Notes: a model not told the origin generated them from the letters alone. Counted from the first letter of the stretch, positions 250 through 15,243 are shown. The stretch is DNA of 15,457 nt from Spirulina sp. (GCA_044070495.1 JBIPSI010000056.1:1-15457); one strand, 5' to 3'. Numbers and translations: made by a program.

Positions 250-316
250 GAGAAATCAATGCTTTTCGGCGTTATGTCGGTCAGCAAGGTTGGTTGTTGG
301 CGTAGTCAATGGGGCT

Positions 317-757
317 TTATTTGCAGGTTATGTTCTTCACTAAATACTTGGGCGATTCTGTATATCCCTGGCGGGTATAGAACCGATGGGCGTCTACTCG
401 GCGGCTGTGGCAGTGGACTTCCATGCGATCACATCCTTGTGCTTGGGCCATCTCGTAGGCCCGGCTCTCTAGGGCGGTGCCAATGCCTTGGCCTCTGGCT
501 TTGGGGCTAACGCAGAGATAGCTAATGCGGCAAAAATCCCCAGGTAGGGCCAATTGGGGGATGAAGTGCAGGGAAATCACCCCTACCACGGCATCGTCAA
601 CGACGGCGACTAGCAAGATCGCATCGGGATGGTCAAGCTGGCGCTGAATGCTGCGGGTGAGGAAATTGAGATCACCAGGATAGCCCAAGTCATCCAGGAG
701 TCGGGCGATTACGGCGGTATCGGCAACGGTGGCGGGGCGAAGCTGGAGAGATGCCAT
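317..757 (-). CDS. GNAT family N-acetyltransferase
   Basis: ATG at 757 (MASLQLRPATVADT), just downstream of the preceding gene's stop. Acetyl-CoA motif LCVSPKARGQGIGTAL and AHRFYTRQGY. Confidence 0.92.
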   Translation of the reverse strand: MASLQLRPATVADTAVIARLLDDLGYPGDLNFLTRSIQRQLDHPDAILLVAVVDDAVVGVISLHFIPQLALPGDFCRISYLCVSPKARGQGIGTALESRAYEMAQAQGCDRMEVHCHSRRVDAHRFYTRQGYTESPKYLVKNITCK

Positions 758-761
758 GGGG

Positions 762-1529
762 TTAGGGAAAAATCGGCGCACCGTTCTGAAACACCAGGAG
801 CTCACCGGGCTGAATGGGTATCCACTGTTCGTTATCGGTGAGGCCCGTGGTGGCAATGATGGCGACTCGGTCGCTGAGGGTGGTCAGTTCTTGAAAGTCT
901 ACGGTGAGATCTTCGTCAATCAGATGAGCCGCCGCAAAGGGTGCTTGCCGCACGATGTAGCAGAGCTTGGTGGAGCAATGGGCAAAAAAGTGCTCGCCAT
1001 CGGAGAGTAGGTAGTTAAAGATGCCGTGCTGGGCGATGTCGGCGGTGATGGCTTGTAGGGTGGCGTAGAGGTCGGTGATGGGGGGCTTGCCCTTGGGAAA
1101 CCGCTGGCGCAGGGTGTTGAGGATGCGGCAAAAGGCACGTTCGCTGTCGGTTTGGCCCACGGGGCGATGTAGTCCAGGTGAAATCTCTAGGGTGGGCACA
1201 TCGCCATTGTGGGCAAACACCCAGTAGCGCCCCCACAGTTCTCGCTTAAAGGGATGGCAGTTTTCTAGCCCCACTGGCCCCACCGTGGCCTTACGAATAT
1301 GGGCAATCACGGTTCTAGACTTGATCGGGTACTGCCGCACCAGGGTGGCAATGGGGGAGGTGCTGGAGGGGTTGTCGTCCAGAAACACGCGACAGCCCAG
1401 CCCCTCAAAAAAGGCAATGCCCCAGCCGTCTTTGTGGTCATCGGTTTTGCCACCCCTGGCGCAAAAGCCCTCAAAGGAGAAGCAAATATCCGTTGGCACG
1501 TTGCAGTTCATCCCTAGGAGTTGACACAT
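762..1529 (-). CDS. Class II glutamine amidotransferase (YafJ/GATase_4 family)
   Basis: Begins MCQLLGMN (N-terminal nucleophile Cys2); motifs HKDGWGIAF, IAHIRKAT, NCHPF, FAHNG and GQTDSE. Confidence 0.93.
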   Translation of the reverse strand: MCQLLGMNCNVPTDICFSFEGFCARGGKTDDHKDGWGIAFFEGLGCRVFLDDNPSSTSPIATLVRQYPIKSRTVIAHIRKATVGPVGLENCHPFKRELWGRYWVFAHNGDVPTLEISPGLHRPVGQTDSERAFCRILNTLRQRFPKGKPPITDLYATLQAITADIAQHGIFNYLLSDGEHFFAHCSTKLCYIVRQAPFAAAHLIDEDLTVDFQELTTLSDRVAIIATTGLTDNEQWIPIQPGELLVFQNGAPIFP

Positions 1530-1769
1530 GGCGCTAGCGACATTTCTGTCAGAGCATTGTATGGCAACCCGGAGTCTTGTCTCGTTCTGCCCTGGGGAAG
1601 CCGCACCCAGAAAAATCGCAACTAGCGCAACCAAGCGATGGTACTGATTCACTGACACAAGATTCTGCGCCGGACGCGGCAACCGCGCCCCTACCGTCTT
1701 CGGAACATGTTGGAGTTAGATCTCCTGACCCTTGGACGGATCTGGGTTCTGGCAAGTTTTGTGAGTCAA

Positions 1770-2888
1770 TCAGGCGGTGGCGATTCGGGGCAGCACAACC
1801 CGCACGGTGGTGCCCGCTTCGGCGGAAGACTCAAGGGTGATCTCTCCCCGATGGGATTCCACAATGCGTTTGACGATGGCTAGGCCGAGGCCATTGCCCC
1901 CCGGCTTGGTGGTAAAAAAGGGCTGACCCAATTTCCTCAGAACCTCTGGCGGAATCGGTTCGCCGCCATTATGCAGGGTGATCCAAAGGGAGGTGGGGTG
2001 GGGGCTGGCGGCAATGCTCCAGGTGACGGTATCGCCGGGGGCAATGGCTTCGCAGGCGTTGCGCACTAGGTTGATGAAGACCTGCTTGAGTTTGTCTGGA
2101 TCGCCCGTAATCCAGACCTCCGGGAGATCCGAGGTGAGGAGGAGGGATCGGCCCTGCATGGCGGGCAGGGTGTCTAGGTGCTCCTTAAGCTGGTAGGCAA
2201 AGGTGACGAAGTCAAAGGTGAGGGGGGCGAGGATGGGTTCGCGGGCGTACTGCAAAATTTCGTTGAGTAACTGCTTGAGGCGGCTAGCTTCCTCTAGGGC
2301 CAAGGTCAGCCGCTGCTGAGCCCGGTCGGGAAGATCCATGGCCTGAAAGGACTCTAACCCCATCAAAATGGTGGTTAGGGGGCTGCGAACTTCATGGACA
2401 ATCATGGCCGCCAGTTCACCAATTTCGGCGAGGCGTTCTGTGGCGGCCTGGGCTTGCTTGCGGGTGGTGATGTCACGCACCATAGAAATGATGCAGTGGC
2501 GTCCGTCTAGGGAAACCACCGCCGCCGAGATCTCGGCGGGCACGGCCACCCCTGCTTTGGTCATGCAGGAAAGCTCATCCGTCCAGCCATGGCCCTGCTG
2601 CAAGACGGTGTTACCAAAGCGCTGAAACTCGGAGAGATCGTGGGGATGGACGGAGGAAACCTTGACGGTGGTCAGCAGTTCTTCACGGCTATAGCCCAGA
2701 AATTCGCTGGCCTTAGGATTCGCTTCGAGGATGCGATCTCCCTGGGGGTCAATCACAAAGATGGCATCGTTGGAGTACTCAAAGATCTGGCGCAGCCTCT
2801 GCTCACTATGGGTCAGTGTTCCATGGCCCTCCGGTGACTGGTTACACAAGGCTTCCCCCGCCCCATCCTCCATCGCATCTGTGGTCAT
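1770..2888 (-). CDS. PAS-domain sensor histidine kinase (soluble)
   Basis: PAS/PAC region (IFEYSNDAIFVID...EANPKA...VHPHD...SMVRDIT), H-box HEVRSPLT, N-box QVFINLVRNA, F/G2 boxes FFTTKPGGNGLGL. Confidence 0.93.
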   Translation of the reverse strand: MTTDAMEDGAGEALCNQSPEGHGTLTHSEQRLRQIFEYSNDAIFVIDPQGDRILEANPKASEFLGYSREELLTTVKVSSVHPHDLSEFQRFGNTVLQQGHGWTDELSCMTKAGVAVPAEISAAVVSLDGRHCIISMVRDITTRKQAQAATERLAEIGELAAMIVHEVRSPLTTILMGLESFQAMDLPDRAQQRLTLALEEASRLKQLLNEILQYAREPILAPLTFDFVTFAYQLKEHLDTLPAMQGRSLLLTSDLPEVWITGDPDKLKQVFINLVRNACEAIAPGDTVTWSIAASPHPTSLWITLHNGGEPIPPEVLRKLGQPFFTTKPGGNGLGLAIVKRIVESHRGEITLESSAEAGTTVRVVLPRIATA

Positions 2889-2938
2889 GGCGTACCCTTT
2901 GTGTGGCTGAATGGCCTAGGTCACCATGGTAACAGATG

Positions 2939-2987
2939 AAAAAAAGTGGCCCAACATAACCCTTTAATCTGCTGGGTGGGCCACTTT
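2939..2987 (-). terminator. Probable intrinsic terminator of the EF-hand gene
   Basis: 11-bp inverted repeat AAAGTGGCCCA/TGGGCCACTTT with a long loop, followed by a T-run on the minus strand. Confidence 0.55.
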
Positions 2988-3039
2988 CAGAGAATCGCGG
3001 GGCCTAGCGGTTCAGCTAGGCCAGATCCGCAGGGCAGAC

Positions 3040-3231
3040 CTAAGCCTGACGCTGCTCACGGTTATACCTCACCAGTTCCGAGAGGGTAACGACCCCGTCT
3101 CCGTTTAGGTCTGCCGCTGCATCGTGTAGGGTGGTTTGGCCCATACTAGAAGACATTTCCGCATTGGCGGCGGCGGCCATGGTCAGACTAGACAGAACGA
3201 CAAACAGACCGGACATAAGTACACGTTTCAT
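3040..3231 (-). CDS. Small secreted EF-hand (Ca2+-binding) protein
   Basis: Signal peptide MKRVLMSGLFVVLSSLTMAAAANA; EF-hand loop DLNGDGVVTLSE; RBS AGGAGG upstream. Confidence 0.8.
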   Translation of the reverse strand: MKRVLMSGLFVVLSSLTMAAAANAEMSSSMGQTTLHDAAADLNGDGVVTLSELVRYNREQRQA

Positions 3232-3399
3232 AGGGTTCCTCCTGGCAAAGGCCTAGGCCTTTGCTTGCTGTGTGGTTTACGGTTCCCATCATGGCGGTCT
3301 ATCCTGAGAGGCCCCTAAACTAAGCTGGGAGAACCCTTAAAAACCCTGAAGGAATGCCTGAAACATCCTGAGCATTGGCTGAGAAACCCTCGGTGCGCC

Positions 3400-4326
3400 C
3401 TAGCCCAGGGTGACCGTAGCGCCCTCGGTGTCGAGCCGCAGCACCTTAGTAGTTACCCTTTGCCCCTGCCAAGCCGCCGCCATGGCCTCGCTCACCTGGG
3501 TTGCGGTGGTGCTGGGGGCTAGGGCCAGCAGGGTGGGGCCTGCGCCGCTGATCACCAAACCGTAGGCTCCGGCGGTTTGGGCGGCAGCGGCCACGGCGTC
3601 ATAGCCCGGAATCAGGGCTTGGCGGTAGGGTTGATGGATCCGGTCGTGCAGGGCCACCCGCAGCCAGTCAGCCTTTCCGGTTTCTAGCCCCCGCAGCAGC
3701 AGCCCCAGGTGGGCAGTGTTGAAAATAGCATCCGCACGGCTGTAGGTGGCAGGAAGGACGCGACGGGCTTCAGCGGTCGAAAGTTCAAAATCGGGAATGG
3801 CCACCACGGGGGTAATCTCGCTGTGCCAGGGCAGGGGGCACAGGGTAGGGGTGCCATCGGCGGCGGTGACTGCCAGTTGACAGCCTCCCACCAGAGCCGG
3901 AACCACATTGTCGGGGTGGCCCTCTAGGGCAATGGCCATCGCCGCAATTTCAGAGGGTTCCAGGGGATCTTCCGCCAGGGCATTGGCCCCCAGCAGCCCC
4001 CCCACTATGGCGGTGGAAGAACTGCCCAACCCACGGGCCAGGGGCACCGCTAGGTCAATGGCCAGGGCCACTGCGGGTACAGCCCACCCTCGCTGCTGAA
4101 AGTAGTGGGCAAAGGCTTGGTAGGCCAGGTTCGTGGCATCGGTGCTGACCCGGTCGGCCTCTAGACCCTGAACAGTAATCGTCACCGTGCCAGGGGGGTG
4201 ATCCATTGCCGTGAAGGTGAAGCGGTTATAGATCGTCAGCGCCGCCCCCAGGCAGTCAAACCCAGGGCCAATGTTGGCGGTTGTACCGGGTACCGTCACA
4301 ATCACAGAGGTAGACACCGCAAACAC
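3400..4326 (-). CDS. thrB: Homoserine kinase
   Basis: Motifs VPGTTANIGPGFDCLG, GHMP PLARGLGSSS, EGHPDNV, DRIHQPYR and ISGAGPT. Exact start (GTG at 4326) is uncertain. Confidence 0.96.
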   Translation of the reverse strand: MFAVSTSVIVTVPGTTANIGPGFDCLGAALTIYNRFTFTAMDHPPGTVTITVQGLEADRVSTDATNLAYQAFAHYFQQRGWAVPAVALAIDLAVPLARGLGSSSTAIVGGLLGANALAEDPLEPSEIAAMAIALEGHPDNVVPALVGGCQLAVTAADGTPTLCPLPWHSEITPVVAIPDFELSTAEARRVLPATYSRADAIFNTAHLGLLLRGLETGKADWLRVALHDRIHQPYRQALIPGYDAVAAAAQTAGAYGLVISGAGPTLLALAPSTTATQVSEAMAAAWQGQRVTTKVLRLDTEGATVTLG

Positions 4327-4542
4327 CTCCAGCGGCTAGAACAGGGTCAAGGTCAGGATAGTAGCACTTTTTGAGGGGCCTAGGTTCTCCGATTCAGAAG
4401 GGGCGTGGGCCGCCTCGCCCCCATCGGATCGAGATGCCGCCAGGATTGGGGTTTCCGGCAGTCTCCTGAACCAAAAACCCTGCGGAAAGGCTCCCGCCAA
4501 CCCGTAAAATACAGTGTCGAATGTTTTTCCTGGAGTAGCAGT

Positions 4543-5110: not shown

Positions 5111-5276
5111 GCTATCGCTTATACACAAGTCTCTATTCTGTTAGTTCCTAGGGTTGATCCCCCCTAGCCCCCCTTGTGAAGGGGGGAACTGGAGTCAAAG
5201 TCCCCCTTGATAAGGGGGATTTAGGGGGATCTCCCAGGTATGGCGGGATGAGAGCAAGCTGTGTCTAAGCAGTAAC
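5111..5276. repeat. Cyanobacterial small dispersed repeat / MITE-like element between convergent genes
   Basis: Core 5156-5231 GATCCCCCCTAGCCCCCCTTGTGAAGGGGGGAAC...GTCCCCCTTGATAAGGGGGATTTAGGGGGATC is an inverted doublet of C-run/G-run hairpins. Outer imperfect IR GCTATCGCTTATACACA / TGTGTCTAAGCAGTAAC. Confidence 0.7.
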
Positions 5277-9483: not shown

Positions 9484-9563
9484 TCTGAAGCGTAGAGCCC
9501 TTCTAGAGATCATTGCTACCCACCCAATGATCGGGTGAGGGCTCGTAGCGAAAGAACCTGGTA
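9476..9563. repeat. 88-bp interrupted inverted repeat at the element boundary
   Basis: Nested stems TACCAGGTTCT/AGAACCTGGTA, GAGCCCT/AGGGCTC and GATCATTG/CAATGATC separated by internal loops. Confidence 0.85.
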
Positions 9564-9616: not shown

Positions 9617-10810
9617 CTAGAGGCTGGCCAGTAGCTCTCGATAGAGATCCTTCACCAGCTTGCTGGCCACCTTGGAAACGGCCTGGGGGTGAGGCATGGG
9701 TGGCAGGGCTTCATAATAGGCGCGATGCTGAGCCAGGTACTTGGGGATCTGCATGTTGGGGCGACTCCGCAAGATAACCACCATCATTTTGATGTGAAGG
9801 TAGATCGCCGTTCGGGCATAGCGGGGGCCTGCGGCTACCTCTGTCTTTACCTGCCCGCTCTGGTACAGGGTGGTGCCGTTGCCCAGGGCTAGTCGAAAGG
9901 CCCCCAGGGAACGATCACGGCGATTCATGCGGCCACTTTTGGAGGGCACACGGGCGCGGATCGGCTTGCCATCGTCTCCCAGGAATTGATCGAAAGGAAC
10001 GATGCGGCTTAGGATACTCGCCCTGGTATTGGAGGCAAAGCCAAACCTATCAAACACGGTGTGATAGGGGGCAAACTCTGGAGACTCCAGCAGCTCGGAG
10101 ATCCTGACCTCTAAGTCATACTGACGCCGTTCTAGTTCGCAGATTTGAGAGGCCAGGGTTTTAGACATAATCGACACCCCTGCTCCGACCGAGCTTCCTT
10201 GTTTGGAGGCCCAGGCTTTACGGTAGCGTCCCTCTCCGGTGGCGATGTAGTTCCACAGAGTAGGCGGCTCTGGGGCCATCCACTTGCGAGACTGTTTGGG
10301 GCGCTTTCCGCCTGATGAGACGCAAACCTCTGGCCATTCCCTGGATAGGAGCTGCCATAGGCGGCGCTGATAGTTCCCCGTCATTCGGCTTAGGAACTGG
10401 TGCTGTAGGACGGCGTCGCGCAGATCCTCGGCATAGTCGCTGAGGAATGCGCTGGGGCGTCCTAGGTTCTCGGCTCCATAGAGGGCCAAGAATGCCGCGT
10501 CGTATCGGTCACTTTTGCTCATCACCCCGTGATAGGTCTGTAGAGCCTTCACCCGCTGGGGGTTCACTCGGTAGACCGCTCGATCATTGGCCTTCAGGAT
10601 ATCGATCCACACCTTGGAGTAGTCGCCGGTGGGCTCCAGAATGAATACCTCTCCCATGGTTAACAGGGAGGCGATTCCGTCGATGGTGGGACACAGGCCG
10701 ATGGGCTGATAGGAGCCTGAGAACTTGCGGTAGTCGGAGGGCATAGCCTCGGAATCTACCACGCAACACGTGATCGACGTTTTGGAAACGTCAATACCTA
10801 CAATCTTCAT
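9617..10810 (-). CDS. IS110-family (DEDD) recombinase/transposase, 397 aa
   Basis: ATG at 10810 (MKIVGIDVSK). RuvC-like DEDD residues in GIDVSK, LEPTG and KSDRYDA; VNPQRVK; coiled-coil middle; C-terminal Tnp domain with YQSG, the position of the catalytic Ser. Confidence 0.88.
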   Translation of the reverse strand: MKIVGIDVSKTSITCCVVDSEAMPSDYRKFSGSYQPIGLCPTIDGIASLLTMGEVFILEPTGDYSKVWIDILKANDRAVYRVNPQRVKALQTYHGVMSKSDRYDAAFLALYGAENLGRPSAFLSDYAEDLRDAVLQHQFLSRMTGNYQRRLWQLLSREWPEVCVSSGGKRPKQSRKWMAPEPPTLWNYIATGEGRYRKAWASKQGSSVGAGVSIMSKTLASQICELERRQYDLEVRISELLESPEFAPYHTVFDRFGFASNTRASILSRIVPFDQFLGDDGKPIRARVPSKSGRMNRRDRSLGAFRLALGNGTTLYQSGQVKTEVAAGPRYARTAIYLHIKMMVVILRSRPNMQIPKYLAQHRAYYEALPPMPHPQAVSKVASKLVKDLYRELLASL

Positions 10811-10898
10811 GAGTTGAATCACCCTTATCTCGGTTCGCAAAGCCCCAGGGGTCAAGCCACCTGTCTGGCACGTCATTCTAAGAACGGGATCCTCTAGG

Positions 10899-10967
10899 GC
10901 TAGGGGCCGTCTAGCAACGTTGCCAAAGCTGAAAAGCTAAGGGCCGTCTAGCAACGTTCCGAAAGCT
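10899..10967. repeat. Tandem direct repeat, 2 copies, 37-nt period
   Basis: GCTAGGGGCCGTCTAGCAACGTTGCCAAAGCT (10899-10930) vs GCTAAGGGCCGTCTAGCAACGTTCCGAAAGCT (10936-10967); 29/32 identical. Confidence 0.9.
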
Positions 10968-11042
10968 TTTGCAGCAACCTGGTATGAGCTCCGACCCCTA
11001 GGCGGTTTGGAGGACAGAAGGATTGCAGCCCCTCTATCCGTG

Positions 11043-11114
11043 CTAAGCCATCCCGCGACTACTCCAAGGGGAGTAGTTTCGGCCCTTGGCAGGGGCCATC
11101 GTCAGGCGGGTTAG
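11043..11114 (-). ncRNA. Hammerhead ribozyme, type I
   Basis: Minus strand: CUAA CCCGC-CUGACGA-U-GGCCC[CUGCCAA]GGGCC-GAAA-CUACUCC[CCUU]GGAGUAG-UC^-GCGGG[AUGGC]UUAG. Full catalytic core and GUC cleavage triplet; loop II GCCA is complementary to UGGC in the stem I bulge. Confidence 0.9.
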
Positions 11115-11332
11115 TAGTCGGAGCCGTCGCTCTCTTCTATGTGGGGCTCTCCGGTGTCGAGGGTGAGGCCTTCTGCGAGGGCCTGGAGACGTTGAACGAT
11201 GGCGCTACGGGCATCCATGGCTTCCATGGAGATAAACATCTCGTCATTGAGAAGGCTGGCAATGTCTATCAGCTCTCGCAGGGCGTTCATGGCCCAGGGT
11301 TGGATGGTGGGGGTTTTATTCGCCATGGTCAT
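11111..11332 (-). CDS. Phage hypothetical protein (73 aa)
   Basis: Overlaps the end of the upstream ORF, GGAG RBS, helical acidic sequence; last small ORF before the hammerhead. Confidence 0.7.
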   Translation of the reverse strand: MTMANKTPTIQPWAMNALRELIDIASLLNDEMFISMEAMDARSAIVQRLQALAEGLTLDTGEPHIEESDGSDY

Positions 11333-11519
11333 CGGCTCCGGTGGCGAGGGGGTAACGGGCGTTGAGGGCGACTTCTTGCTCTAGACGCGCTTTGTTGAGG
11401 GCCTGGGCTTGGTCGCGAAGATAGGTCAGGTCGGGCAAGCTCATGGAGCGCATTTCTTTGAGGATTTCGCTCGTCACTCGGTCTTTGGGGGTTACGTAGT
11501 GGGCGTTTCCGGTGTTCAT
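11316..11519 (-). CDS. Phage hypothetical protein (67 aa)
   Basis: ATG at 11519 overlaps the upstream TGA (ATGA); RBS GGAGG. Confidence 0.72.
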   Translation of the reverse strand: MNTGNAHYVTPKDRVTSEILKEMRSMSLPDLTYLRDQAQALNKARLEQEVALNARYPLATGADDHGE

Positions 11520-14549: not shown

Positions 14550-15122
14550 TTAGTGGATGACGACGGCGGCCACCGCAACGGCGGCGACGGCGGCCAGCAG
14601 CACCAGCAGCAGGAATCGGGCTGTTTTTCCCCAGAAGGTGGTGCCGGTGGTGAACCACTGGACAAACAGGTAGAGGGCGTCGTCGTAGCGGTCGCCGTCG
14701 AGGGGAGCTGGGGGAATGGTGGCCAGGGGCGTGAGGCTTACGACGGTGGCGGGGCCGTCGTCGTTGATGGTGTCGTTCTCATCCTCAACAACTCGGATCG
14801 GCGGGTTGCTGCTGAGGTGGATTTTGTCTCCGATGGTGAGGGAGTGCCAGTTATAGGGGGTGAGGGCTTGGTCGTTTAACCAGGTGCCCCCGGTGGATTT
14901 GAGATCCTGAATGGCCCAGCGGTCGGCGGCGTAGCTGTAGGTGATGGCCAGATGGCGACGACTAACGGTCTTGACGGCCAAGGTTAGGTCTAACTCTGGG
15001 GAGCGTCCGACCAGGAACTCGTCAGAGTCGGCGTCTGGTCGGGGGATGGTCAGGCGATGGGTGTGATCCGCCAATGACGGGTCGGGGAACTCAGGCGGAA
15101 AGTAGAGCGATAGGGTTGGCAC
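14550..15122 (-). CDS. FHA-domain protein with C-terminal transmembrane helix
   Basis: Motifs VGR, VSRRH, IQDLKSTGGTWLN and LTIGDKI; TM segment FLLLVLLAAVAAVAVAAVVI; GTG at 15122 behind RBS AGGAGGAGG. Confidence 0.88.
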   Translation of the reverse strand: MPTLSLYFPPEFPDPSLADHTHRLTIPRPDADSDEFLVGRSPELDLTLAVKTVSRRHLAITYSYAADRWAIQDLKSTGGTWLNDQALTPYNWHSLTIGDKIHLSSNPPIRVVEDENDTINDDGPATVVSLTPLATIPPAPLDGDRYDDALYLFVQWFTTGTTFWGKTARFLLLVLLAAVAAVAVAAVVIH

Positions 15123-15243
15123 TCTGACTACCTCCTCCTTGGCGACGGCCTGGGAATTTGTTGCGGTCGCCAGCAACCAGGGCGAGGCCCAGTAGCAGAG
15201 CCAGTAGCAGGGCGATCCATGGTTTACGGGGGCTGCGATTCAT
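15091..15243 (-). CDS. Small membrane-anchored or secreted peptide (50 aa)
   Basis: ATG at 15243 overlaps the upstream TGA (ATGA); basic n-region, hydrophobic WIALLLALLLGLALVA, then PGRRQGGGS. Confidence 0.6.
   Translation of the reverse strand: MNRSPRKPWIALLLALLLGLALVAGDRNKFPGRRQGGGSQSANPIALLSA

Follow-up and report, generated by a model that had tools for sequence, protein, structure and literature searches.

A predicted hammerhead ribozyme at the 5' end of a putative bridge RNA in a large cargo element of Nodosilinea-type cyanobacteria

What does a self-cleaving ribozyme do in front of a recombinase gene? Bacterial hammerheads, known for over a decade, often lie beside prophage recombinase genes, and their function is left open in the available text of Perreault 2011 (PMC3088659). 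The question was raised again by a stretch of 15,457 nucleotides from Spirulina sp. (JBIPSI010000056.1:1-15457; the window, to which all plain coordinates refer), in which a complete type I hammerhead overlapping a stop codon had been predicted on the minus strand upstream of a recombinase gene.

The segment 11114-11043 of the minus strand was confirmed, as a sequence-level motif, to be a complete type I hammerhead. It reads CUAA-CCCGC-CUGACGA-U-GGCCC-CUGCCAA-GGGCC-GAAA-CUACUCC-CCUU-GGAGUAG-UC/GCGGG-AUGGC-UUAG, the slash marking the predicted cut. All the parts named in the original prediction (core, extra U, stems and GUC) were found where it had placed them (Table 1). The core residues C3 U4 G5 A6 N7 G8 A9 and G12 A13 A14 correspond to CUGACGA at 11105-11099 and GAA at 11080-11078, and hairpins II and III were present in the MFE fold of 11125-11035 (-36.2 kcal/mol, z -2.49). 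Among 25 sequences of the family, the core positions were invariant, or variable at N7, in every case, and the A15.1-U16.1 pair was kept in all. Two relatives carried GUA as cleavage triplet instead of GUC. The extra U between A9 and stem II, a departure from the textbook core, was found in 15 of the 25 family members. Stem I had been described as 5+4 bp; both parts are present, and the distal 4 bp fall outside the conserved structure, in which CCGC/GCGG alone is invariant.

Table 1. Features of the predicted hammerhead, leader, recombinase gene and right end of the element.
Feature	Position	Strand	Remark
Last ORF of the upstream co-oriented operon, 73 aa	11111-11332	-	TAA 11113-11111 adjoins stem I
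Distal stem I, 4 bp	CUAA 11114-11111 with UUAG 11046-11043	-	
Predicted catalytic part, stem I 5' arm to GUC	11110-11057	-	would stay with the 5' product if cut; R1 match and covariation
Stem I 5' arm CCCGC	11110-11106	-	
Core CUGACGA	11105-11099	-	
Extra U	11098	-	
Stem II	GGCCC 11097-11093 with GGGCC 11085-11081	-	
Loop II CUGCCAA	11092-11086	-	
GAAA	11080-11077	-	
Core pair	A11077-U11058	-	added to stem III
Stem III, 7 bp	11076-11070 with 11065-11059	-	loop CCUU
Predicted cut	11057/11056	-	C17 = 11057, GUC triplet
Stem I 3' arm GCGGG	11056-11052	-	also first bases of the putative bridge RNA; predicted 5'-OH end G11056
Bulge AUGGC	11051-11047	-	
UGGC	11050-11047	-	candidate pseudoknot partner of loop II GCCA 11090-11087
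Predicted bridge RNA body	11056-10841	-	5' hairpin domain, target-binding region, donor-binding region; 3' limit approximate
Predicted right target guide AUACCAGGUU	10985-10976	-	exact complement of AACCTGGTAT, core + right host flank, 9484-9475
Candidate left donor guide UUUCGGAAC	10964-10956	-	against right-end terminus + core CTTCAGAAC, 2 wobbles
Predicted left target guide UGGCAAC	10925-10919	-	sense of left flank + core, 7/7
Predicted right donor guide UAGAAUGACGU	10880-10870	-	complement of ACGTTATTCTA, core + left-end start, C50:20721-20731
IS110-family DEDD recombinase, 397 aa	10810-9617	-	PF01548 E 1.5e-15; NF051857
Intrinsic-terminator-like hairpin + T run	9597-9575	-	past the recombinase gene
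Right-end palindrome	9563-9476	-	26-nt arms, 77% complementary
Core AAC at the right junction	9484-9482	-	element end 9485, host DNA again from 9481
Cargo shared by two elements of this genome	11316-15457		against C50:1-3829
Module in the same two elements	9872-10534		against C50:4960-5628

A contact between loop II and the bulge had been proposed as well, and in the window it would consist of four Watson-Crick pairs, GCCA with UGGC. In many relatives, loop II pairs with bases located 2-8 nt past GCGGG, and a covarying pseudoknot of 5-7 bp results (GACUCA/UGAGUC, GACACA/UGUGUC, GACCC/GGGUC, GACGC/GCGUC). A Watson-Crick run of at least 5 was present at the loop II/tail position in 12 of the 25 sequences, and the pseudoknot was absent in five relatives with 2-4-nt loops. 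The proposed contact in the window, at 4 bp only, is a candidate supported by analogy with the pseudoknot that covaries at the same position in relatives. Pseudoknots between stems I and II are a known way to speed hammerheads (PMC3088659).

The Rfam hammerhead models, which the original prediction had proposed as a check, did not report the motif: no hammerhead was found in the window at the gathering score, nor at E<=10 within 10850-11350. The sole Rfam match in the window, IFN_gamma with an E of 0.52, was discarded as spurious. On RF00163, the homologous locus L013 scored 26.0 bits against a GA of 34. An own descriptor, consisting of the core and stems of at least 4, 3 and 4 bp, gave two matches in the 5.3-Mb genome, the window site and a paralogue at C50:4410-4466 on another contig, and none in the reversed genome. 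The covariance model R1 was built from 13 hammerheads of other cyanobacterial genera, without the window sequence. It matched the window over its full length (11050-11111) with 55.5 bits and an E of 4.4e-14, and it detected 25 of the 25 loci supplied. In the R1 alignment of these loci, which was fitted to the model and hence favours the structure, 97.6% of the cells were paired, compared with 76.4% after shuffling and 34.8-58.2% with the partners slid, and compensatory changes occurred in 10 of 17 pairs (5/6 in helix II, 5/7 in helix III). Stem I was without variation, with CCGC/GCGG identical in all 25 sequences, the sampling having leaned on a pattern with GCGGG fixed. Core identity, covariation and an independent covariance model thus back the type I hammerhead with a GUC site.

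The gene downstream of the motif encodes an IS110-family recombinase. In NCBIfam, it reached 267 bits with NF051857 (cut-off 180) and remained below the cut-off of the "RNA-guided" model NF033542 (89.8 vs 140 bits); PF02371 was not reported at E<=0.01. Searching the PDB with a profile of the recombinase family revealed the IS621 transposase (8wt6_A, E 2.8e-5), and phmmer with the recombinase alone gave no match in the PDB. Twenty-four homologues from Nodosilinea and Leptolyngbyaceae, found by word search, begin about 22 residues later than the open frame, which extends 66 nt upstream of their start (10811-10876). The coding sequence therefore most likely starts at ATG 10810 and not at 10876. 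If the gene were annotated from its first ATG (10876), it would take in the bridge RNA region's 3' part. In L013, the recombinase frame stops after 15 codons (L013:2798-2846) while hammerhead and leader are intact, so that the gene is probably broken there. The original prediction had the 3' product carry a leader and the recombinase ORF, which proved right; the bridge RNA, the IS110 family and the start at 10810 had all been missed.

Is the hammerhead a regular companion of this gene? A strict pattern with a fixed stem II sequence matched one further genome among 100 relatives; because it was too narrow, a looser pattern and the covariance model were adopted. The looser pattern matched in 17 of 401 genomes of the cyanobacterial phylum, the window's genome included, with 24 real sites against 8 for a reversed-pattern control. 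An IS110-like ORF followed 150-280 nt after 17 of the 21 pattern sites outside the window. The sites in L023, L032 and L039 were false positives, missed by the covariance model too, and at L027 no intact ORF followed. Within the 401 genomes, there were no pattern matches with intact stems in any other context. When loci were fetched via the recombinase instead, all six had a type I hammerhead upstream on the same strand, 263-292 nt before the start codon and with different stem II and stem III sequences. A search with a recombinase profile, in which no more than four candidates per genome were scored, returned at least 53 matches, and these came from 36 of the 401 genomes. About 15 of these 53 coincided with pattern sites, and from the other 38, 20 were chosen, non-randomly, for well-placed starts. 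Upstream of 18 of the 20, R1 found a match (E<=7e-9) on the gene's strand at a distance of about 230-300 nt; upstream of L169 and L182, it found none. From these comparisons, a hammerhead upstream of this recombinase clade appears to be near-universal.

The leader 3' of the cut, 246 nt long in the window, was identified from its predicted fold and guides as the bridge RNA of a divergent IS110-family recombinase. Between cut and start codon, the leader is conserved, with a length of 216-246 nt. RNAalifold gave 36 consensus pairs, 16 of them with compensatory changes; the MFE fold of the single sequence, which does not reproduce this consensus, was set aside. In the consensus fold, the 5'-terminal GCGG pairs with CCGC at 11005-11002 in eight of eight sequences by G-C or G-U pairs, and this alternative pairing showed one-sided changes only, no compensatory ones. 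The predicted cut falls at the first base of the conserved bridge-RNA structure, and GCGGG is common to stem I and the first bridge-RNA helix in two very different leader types.

The predicted guides were compared with the sequences at the ends of the element. The right target guide matched its cognate site at 10 of 10 positions, other leaders at 6-9. The left target guide is followed by GUUG (feature 10925-10915), which matches the start of the left end, so that the cognate run is 11 nt, compared with at most 9 for other leaders. Together, both guides match both halves of the empty-site target GTGGC-AAC-CTGGTAT. In six of the seven elements compared, the antisense guide occupies leader position 69-72 and yields the longest cognate match, 10-12 nt that span the right junction; it covaries with the flank in all seven, the match in L014 having been read by eye. 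Non-cognate pairs mostly reached 6-9 nt, two or three of them 10-11 nt, partly from related targets. The predicted right donor guide pairs over 11 bp with one wobble and covaries in the paralogous element A, where AGAGCGACGU faces ATGTTGCTCT. In the control comparison, the candidate left donor guide was no better than non-cognate leaders, and because these score equally high, the evidence for it is weak.

The insertion site was defined independently of the guides, from empty sites in five same-genus genomes. The window's element is split over contigs, its left part running from C50:20723 onward. Its left end was located by tblastx to relatives and then proven with the empty sites; an attempt to infer it from an assumed inverted repeat had failed. 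In all five empty sites, C50:20722 is joined to window position 9484, and the two sides overlap by 3 nt, AAC. Left of the junction the empty site has GTGGCAAC and right of it CTGGTATATTG, the right half beginning CTGG; in a longer form, the two halves are GGGGTGGCAAC and CTGGTATATTGCC. In genome G101, the empty sites of three related genomes join L015:1097 to L015:15753. The insertion thus delimited is 14,655 bp long (L015:1098-15752), with AGAACG at both junctions; its right junction, fixed independently by the three empty sites, is matched by the guide. The integration module, composed of hammerhead, bridge RNA and recombinase, is found at the right end; in G101, about 13 kb separate it from the left end. 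Because the left end is so far away, an RE-LE junction promoter of the IS621 type cannot directly precede this bridge RNA.

A simple insertion sequence starting at the hammerhead had once been suggested by two observations: homology sets in at CCGC, and an "AAC" stands immediately upstream. A simple IS110 insertion sequence measures about 1.2-1.6 kb and has the recombinase as its only gene, and the G101 insertion carries about a dozen ORFs. This reading was rejected because the empty sites show the whole large element to be the insertion, and because the far-off left end is matched by the continuation of the sense guides (GUUG.. against GTTATT/GTTGCT).

Upstream of the module lies a run of co-oriented ORFs without Pfam or PHROG matches. 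In L015, Pfam and PHROGs gave nothing for 15 of 18 ORFs, and the ESM Atlas gave nothing usable for a 925-aa cargo ORF (scores <=0.77, TM <=0.16). An FHA-domain protein is encoded in the cargo of the window (14550-15176). At the left end of the G101 element, a tyrosine-recombinase-like ORF of 213 aa was found on the opposite strand (L015:14967-15608, plus strand; PF00589, E 2e-15), and the same ORF occurs at C50 ~20760-21325 and C47 ~1520-2085. It represents a second recombinase in elements whose junctions fit an IS110-type enzyme. Repeats of about 130-180 nt, MITE-like and 80-98% identical, were also noted in dozens of copies across the contigs of the genome (window 5141-5274; C50 9219-9404 and 12028-12340).

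At the right end, the segment 9501-9476, made up of the right-end terminus, the core and 7 nt of host flank, is mirrored by the inner arm of the palindrome (9563-9538). Because this arm mirrors the host flank, the target specificity of the element is present in it a second time, at the level of DNA. The palindrome was also found in six other elements, including C50, L009, L010 and L011, and it is perfect over about 40 bp in L012 and L014.

In the two elements of this genome, the cargo is 88-98% identical and the modules only 66%, the switch falling at the hammerhead. The two modules also differ in target, with the cores AAC and AAT. Copies from other genera frequently start to resemble each other precisely at CCGC of stem I, and two copies in genome G288 share at least 3.1 kb upstream of the hammerhead. 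Because identity switches between cargo and module and homology starts from CCGC, the module behaves as an exchangeable unit that starts at the ribozyme. From these alignments, it looks as if the module had been exchanged as a unit with the break at the hammerhead.

Taken together, the best explanation of these comparisons is that hammerhead, bridge RNA and recombinase would constitute a three-part integration module of a large cargo element in Nodosilinea-type cyanobacteria. It seems probable that the ribozyme cuts a read-through transcript and thereby gives the RNA that carries bridge RNA and recombinase its 5' end, after which GCGGG would switch helix. In this process, transcription would enter from the co-oriented upstream operon, whose last ORF stops 5 nt before CUGA and is a real and conserved gene. 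From this ORF to the ribozyme, nothing resembling a promoter or a terminator was found on the minus strand; a promoter inside the upstream ORF could escape a scan with the sigma-70 consensus. The ribozyme would fold with GCGGG, the bridge RNA's first five bases, as the 3' arm of its stem I, possibly stabilised by the GCCA/UGGC pseudoknot between loop II and the tail, and would cut after C11057. The upstream mRNA would retain the ribozyme and a 2',3'-cyclic phosphate, and the downstream RNA would begin at G11056 with a 5'-OH. The freed GCGG may then pair with CCGC at 11005-11002 and close the first domain of the bridge RNA, and it is proposed that this refolding renders the cut effectively one-way. 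Finally, guided by the bridge RNA, the recombinase would find the target TGGC-AAC-CTGGTAT as well as the two ends of its own element. Self-cleavage, read-through transcription, refolding and RNA-guided recombination by this clade are steps that we infer.

The same class of ribozyme occurs outside this module. In viral contigs, 79 distinct hammerhead-like matches were found, 57 of them with both stems by our own parse. They follow the design CGC-CUGAYGA(U)..GAAAC..GUC-GCGGG, many of the 79 with the extra U, and usually precede small ORFs by 10-80 nt, with a GCGGG-loop-CCCGC hairpin coming after the ribozyme. Only one of the 79 precedes an IS110-like gene (L090, a related module on a 15.4-kb IMG/VR contig). 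Because these hammerheads are common before ordinary small ORFs, the class is not specific to bridge RNAs and could act in mRNA processing more generally. Rfam gives even canonical-looking viral members 24.9-26.8 bits, below the RF00163 gathering score of 34, and the predicted ribozyme is on this ground a member of a widespread class poorly covered by existing models. In a 2026 preprint (10.64898/2026.10.21.760802), a "divergent hammerhead" is reported from 152 loci, the highest score on RF00163 being 26.4 bits, and these loci may overlap with the present class. In the phage hammerheads L045-L124, the 3' product usually begins GCGGG-AGCCA-CCCGC, a hairpin that competes with stem I; the principle is the same as in the GCGG/CCGC pairing of the bridge RNA, in a shorter form. 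In the viral contig L045, a type I hammerhead of the studied class adjoins a ribozyme-dense region (270-4440) with a twister-sister (74 bits), a type II hammerhead (53.9 bits) and three RAGATH-5.

The viral matches could mean that the window's hammerhead is of the generic intergenic phage type, and that it uncouples the recombinase message from the cargo operon and gives it a stability or translation of its own. The 5'-OH end would be closed by a hairpin, and its precise position would play no part in the bridge RNA. Bacterial hammerheads near prophage integrase genes point the same way, long phage transcripts having been proposed to be processed into shorter mRNAs (PMC3088659). We regard this account as unlikely, because in the sampled cyanobacteria intact-stem matches of the pattern occurred only before this module, because the predicted cut falls where the conserved bridge-RNA structure begins, and because GCGGG serves both helices in two leader types. 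It is compatible with the reading of a three-part module, since one cut does both jobs. Far less probable is it that the motif is a chance or decayed look-alike of a hammerhead, or that the leader is an ordinary 5' UTR with coincidental guide matches. No Rfam hammerhead was found, chance would, by our own arithmetic, yield a single 10-nt complement about 0.07 times when stretches of 246 and 300 nt are compared, and some non-cognate pairs do reach 10-11 nt. The descriptor, however, had no match in the reversed genome, the R1 E-value was 4e-14 and the helices show compensatory changes; moreover, the guide has a fixed position in the leader and falls on the independently mapped junctions of G101 and of the window's element, and a second guide fits the other half of the same target site. 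These observations bring the chance or relic reading close to refutation.

The stop codon of the upstream ORF allows another reading, already raised in the original prediction as an influence of the terminating ribosome on folding, in which the ribozyme is gated by translation. The original prediction had placed this codon in the 5' arm of stem I, which is true and conserved in four loci: in the window, C50, L012 and L013, which all have homologous upstream ORFs, exactly 5 nt separate TAA from CUGA, and in L014 it has the same position behind a short open frame. The footprint of a ribosome extends a dozen or more nucleotides beyond the stop codon. A ribosome at TAA 11113-11111 would thus cover the 5' arm of stem I and CUGA, and cleavage, hence the output of bridge RNA and recombinase, would report on translation of the upstream ORF. 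Yet in L009, L010 and L011, three of the eight Nodosilinea-type loci, any stop codon is more than 12 nt away from CUGA, and the sequences before CCGC are variable in other genera. Such a switch is accordingly considered quite improbable, and processing of a read-through transcript at the start of the bridge RNA is the preferred account.

How does the module relate to known systems? With bacterial and phage type I hammerheads (PMC3088659; RF00163, clan CL00010), it shares the catalytic core, the three-helix junction and the open stem I, as well as a candidate loop II pseudoknot with the strand past stem I and the association with mobile elements and recombinases. It differs from RF00163 hammerheads in its score below the gathering threshold and in the extra U after A9, and from those of bacteria and phages in that the 3' product would be a bridge RNA, not a short hairpin and an ORF. 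As in IS621 and IS110 (PMC11208160), a non-coding RNA stands directly upstream of a DEDD recombinase gene. As the same source describes for IS621, the left guide would pair with the bottom strand and the right guide with the top strand, both including the core, and a second guide set would address the element's own ends, the left donor guide being here a candidate (PMC11208160). The available text of that paper gives a core dinucleotide, in comparison with 3 nt (AAY) here, and places the RNA in the left end behind a circle-junction promoter, whereas here it lies near the right end of a 14.65-kb element (PMC11208160). Unlike IS621, moreover, the RNA is about 215-245 nt long with a ribozyme in front, and the recombinase is only distantly related (E 2.8e-5) and falls under NF051857 instead of NF033542. 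The order of the guides in the loop also appears reversed relative to that of IS621.

R2 and other retrotransposons carry HDV-like ribozymes at their 5' end, which likewise free the RNA of a mobile element from a co-transcript; they belong to another ribozyme class, stay on the element RNA and act in eukaryotic, retrotransposing elements. A closer likeness is found in engineered ribozyme-guide-ribozyme cassettes (PMC9881144), in which stem I is formed with the first bases of the guide and the cut leaves a defined 5' end of the guide whatever the promoter. In comparison with those described there (PMC9881144), the present arrangement is natural, no 3' ribozyme was found in it, and the guide runs into the recombinase mRNA. 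In the literature searched, no natural connection of a hammerhead with IS110 or a bridge RNA was found. As far as the available texts go, hammerheads near prophage integrases (PMC3088659), bridge RNAs (PMC11208160) and engineered cassettes (PMC9881144) are already known.

We lean slightly towards a broader proposal, namely that in this whole clade, present in 36 of 401 sampled cyanobacterial-phylum genomes, the bridge RNA was relocated from the left end into the interior of the element, behind a long cargo operon, with the hammerhead as an obligatory 5' processing signal and GCGGG, for which stem I and the first bridge-RNA helix compete, as a one-way folding switch, and that the clade naturally mobilises elements of about 15 kb, which are possibly virus-like. 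If true, this would be a natural "ribozyme-guide" cassette and a natural case of bridge recombination with large cargo. One class of hammerheads would thereby receive a concrete proposed job, the making of the 5' end of a guide RNA, and the arrangement points to promoter-independent expression of a guide within a longer transcript, as in the ribozyme-guide cassettes of engineers. As regards bridge recombinases, the arrangement suggests a divergent clade whose core has 3 nt and whose natural cargo is about 15 kb, and the matches between guides and targets make the specificity of this clade readable from sequence alone.
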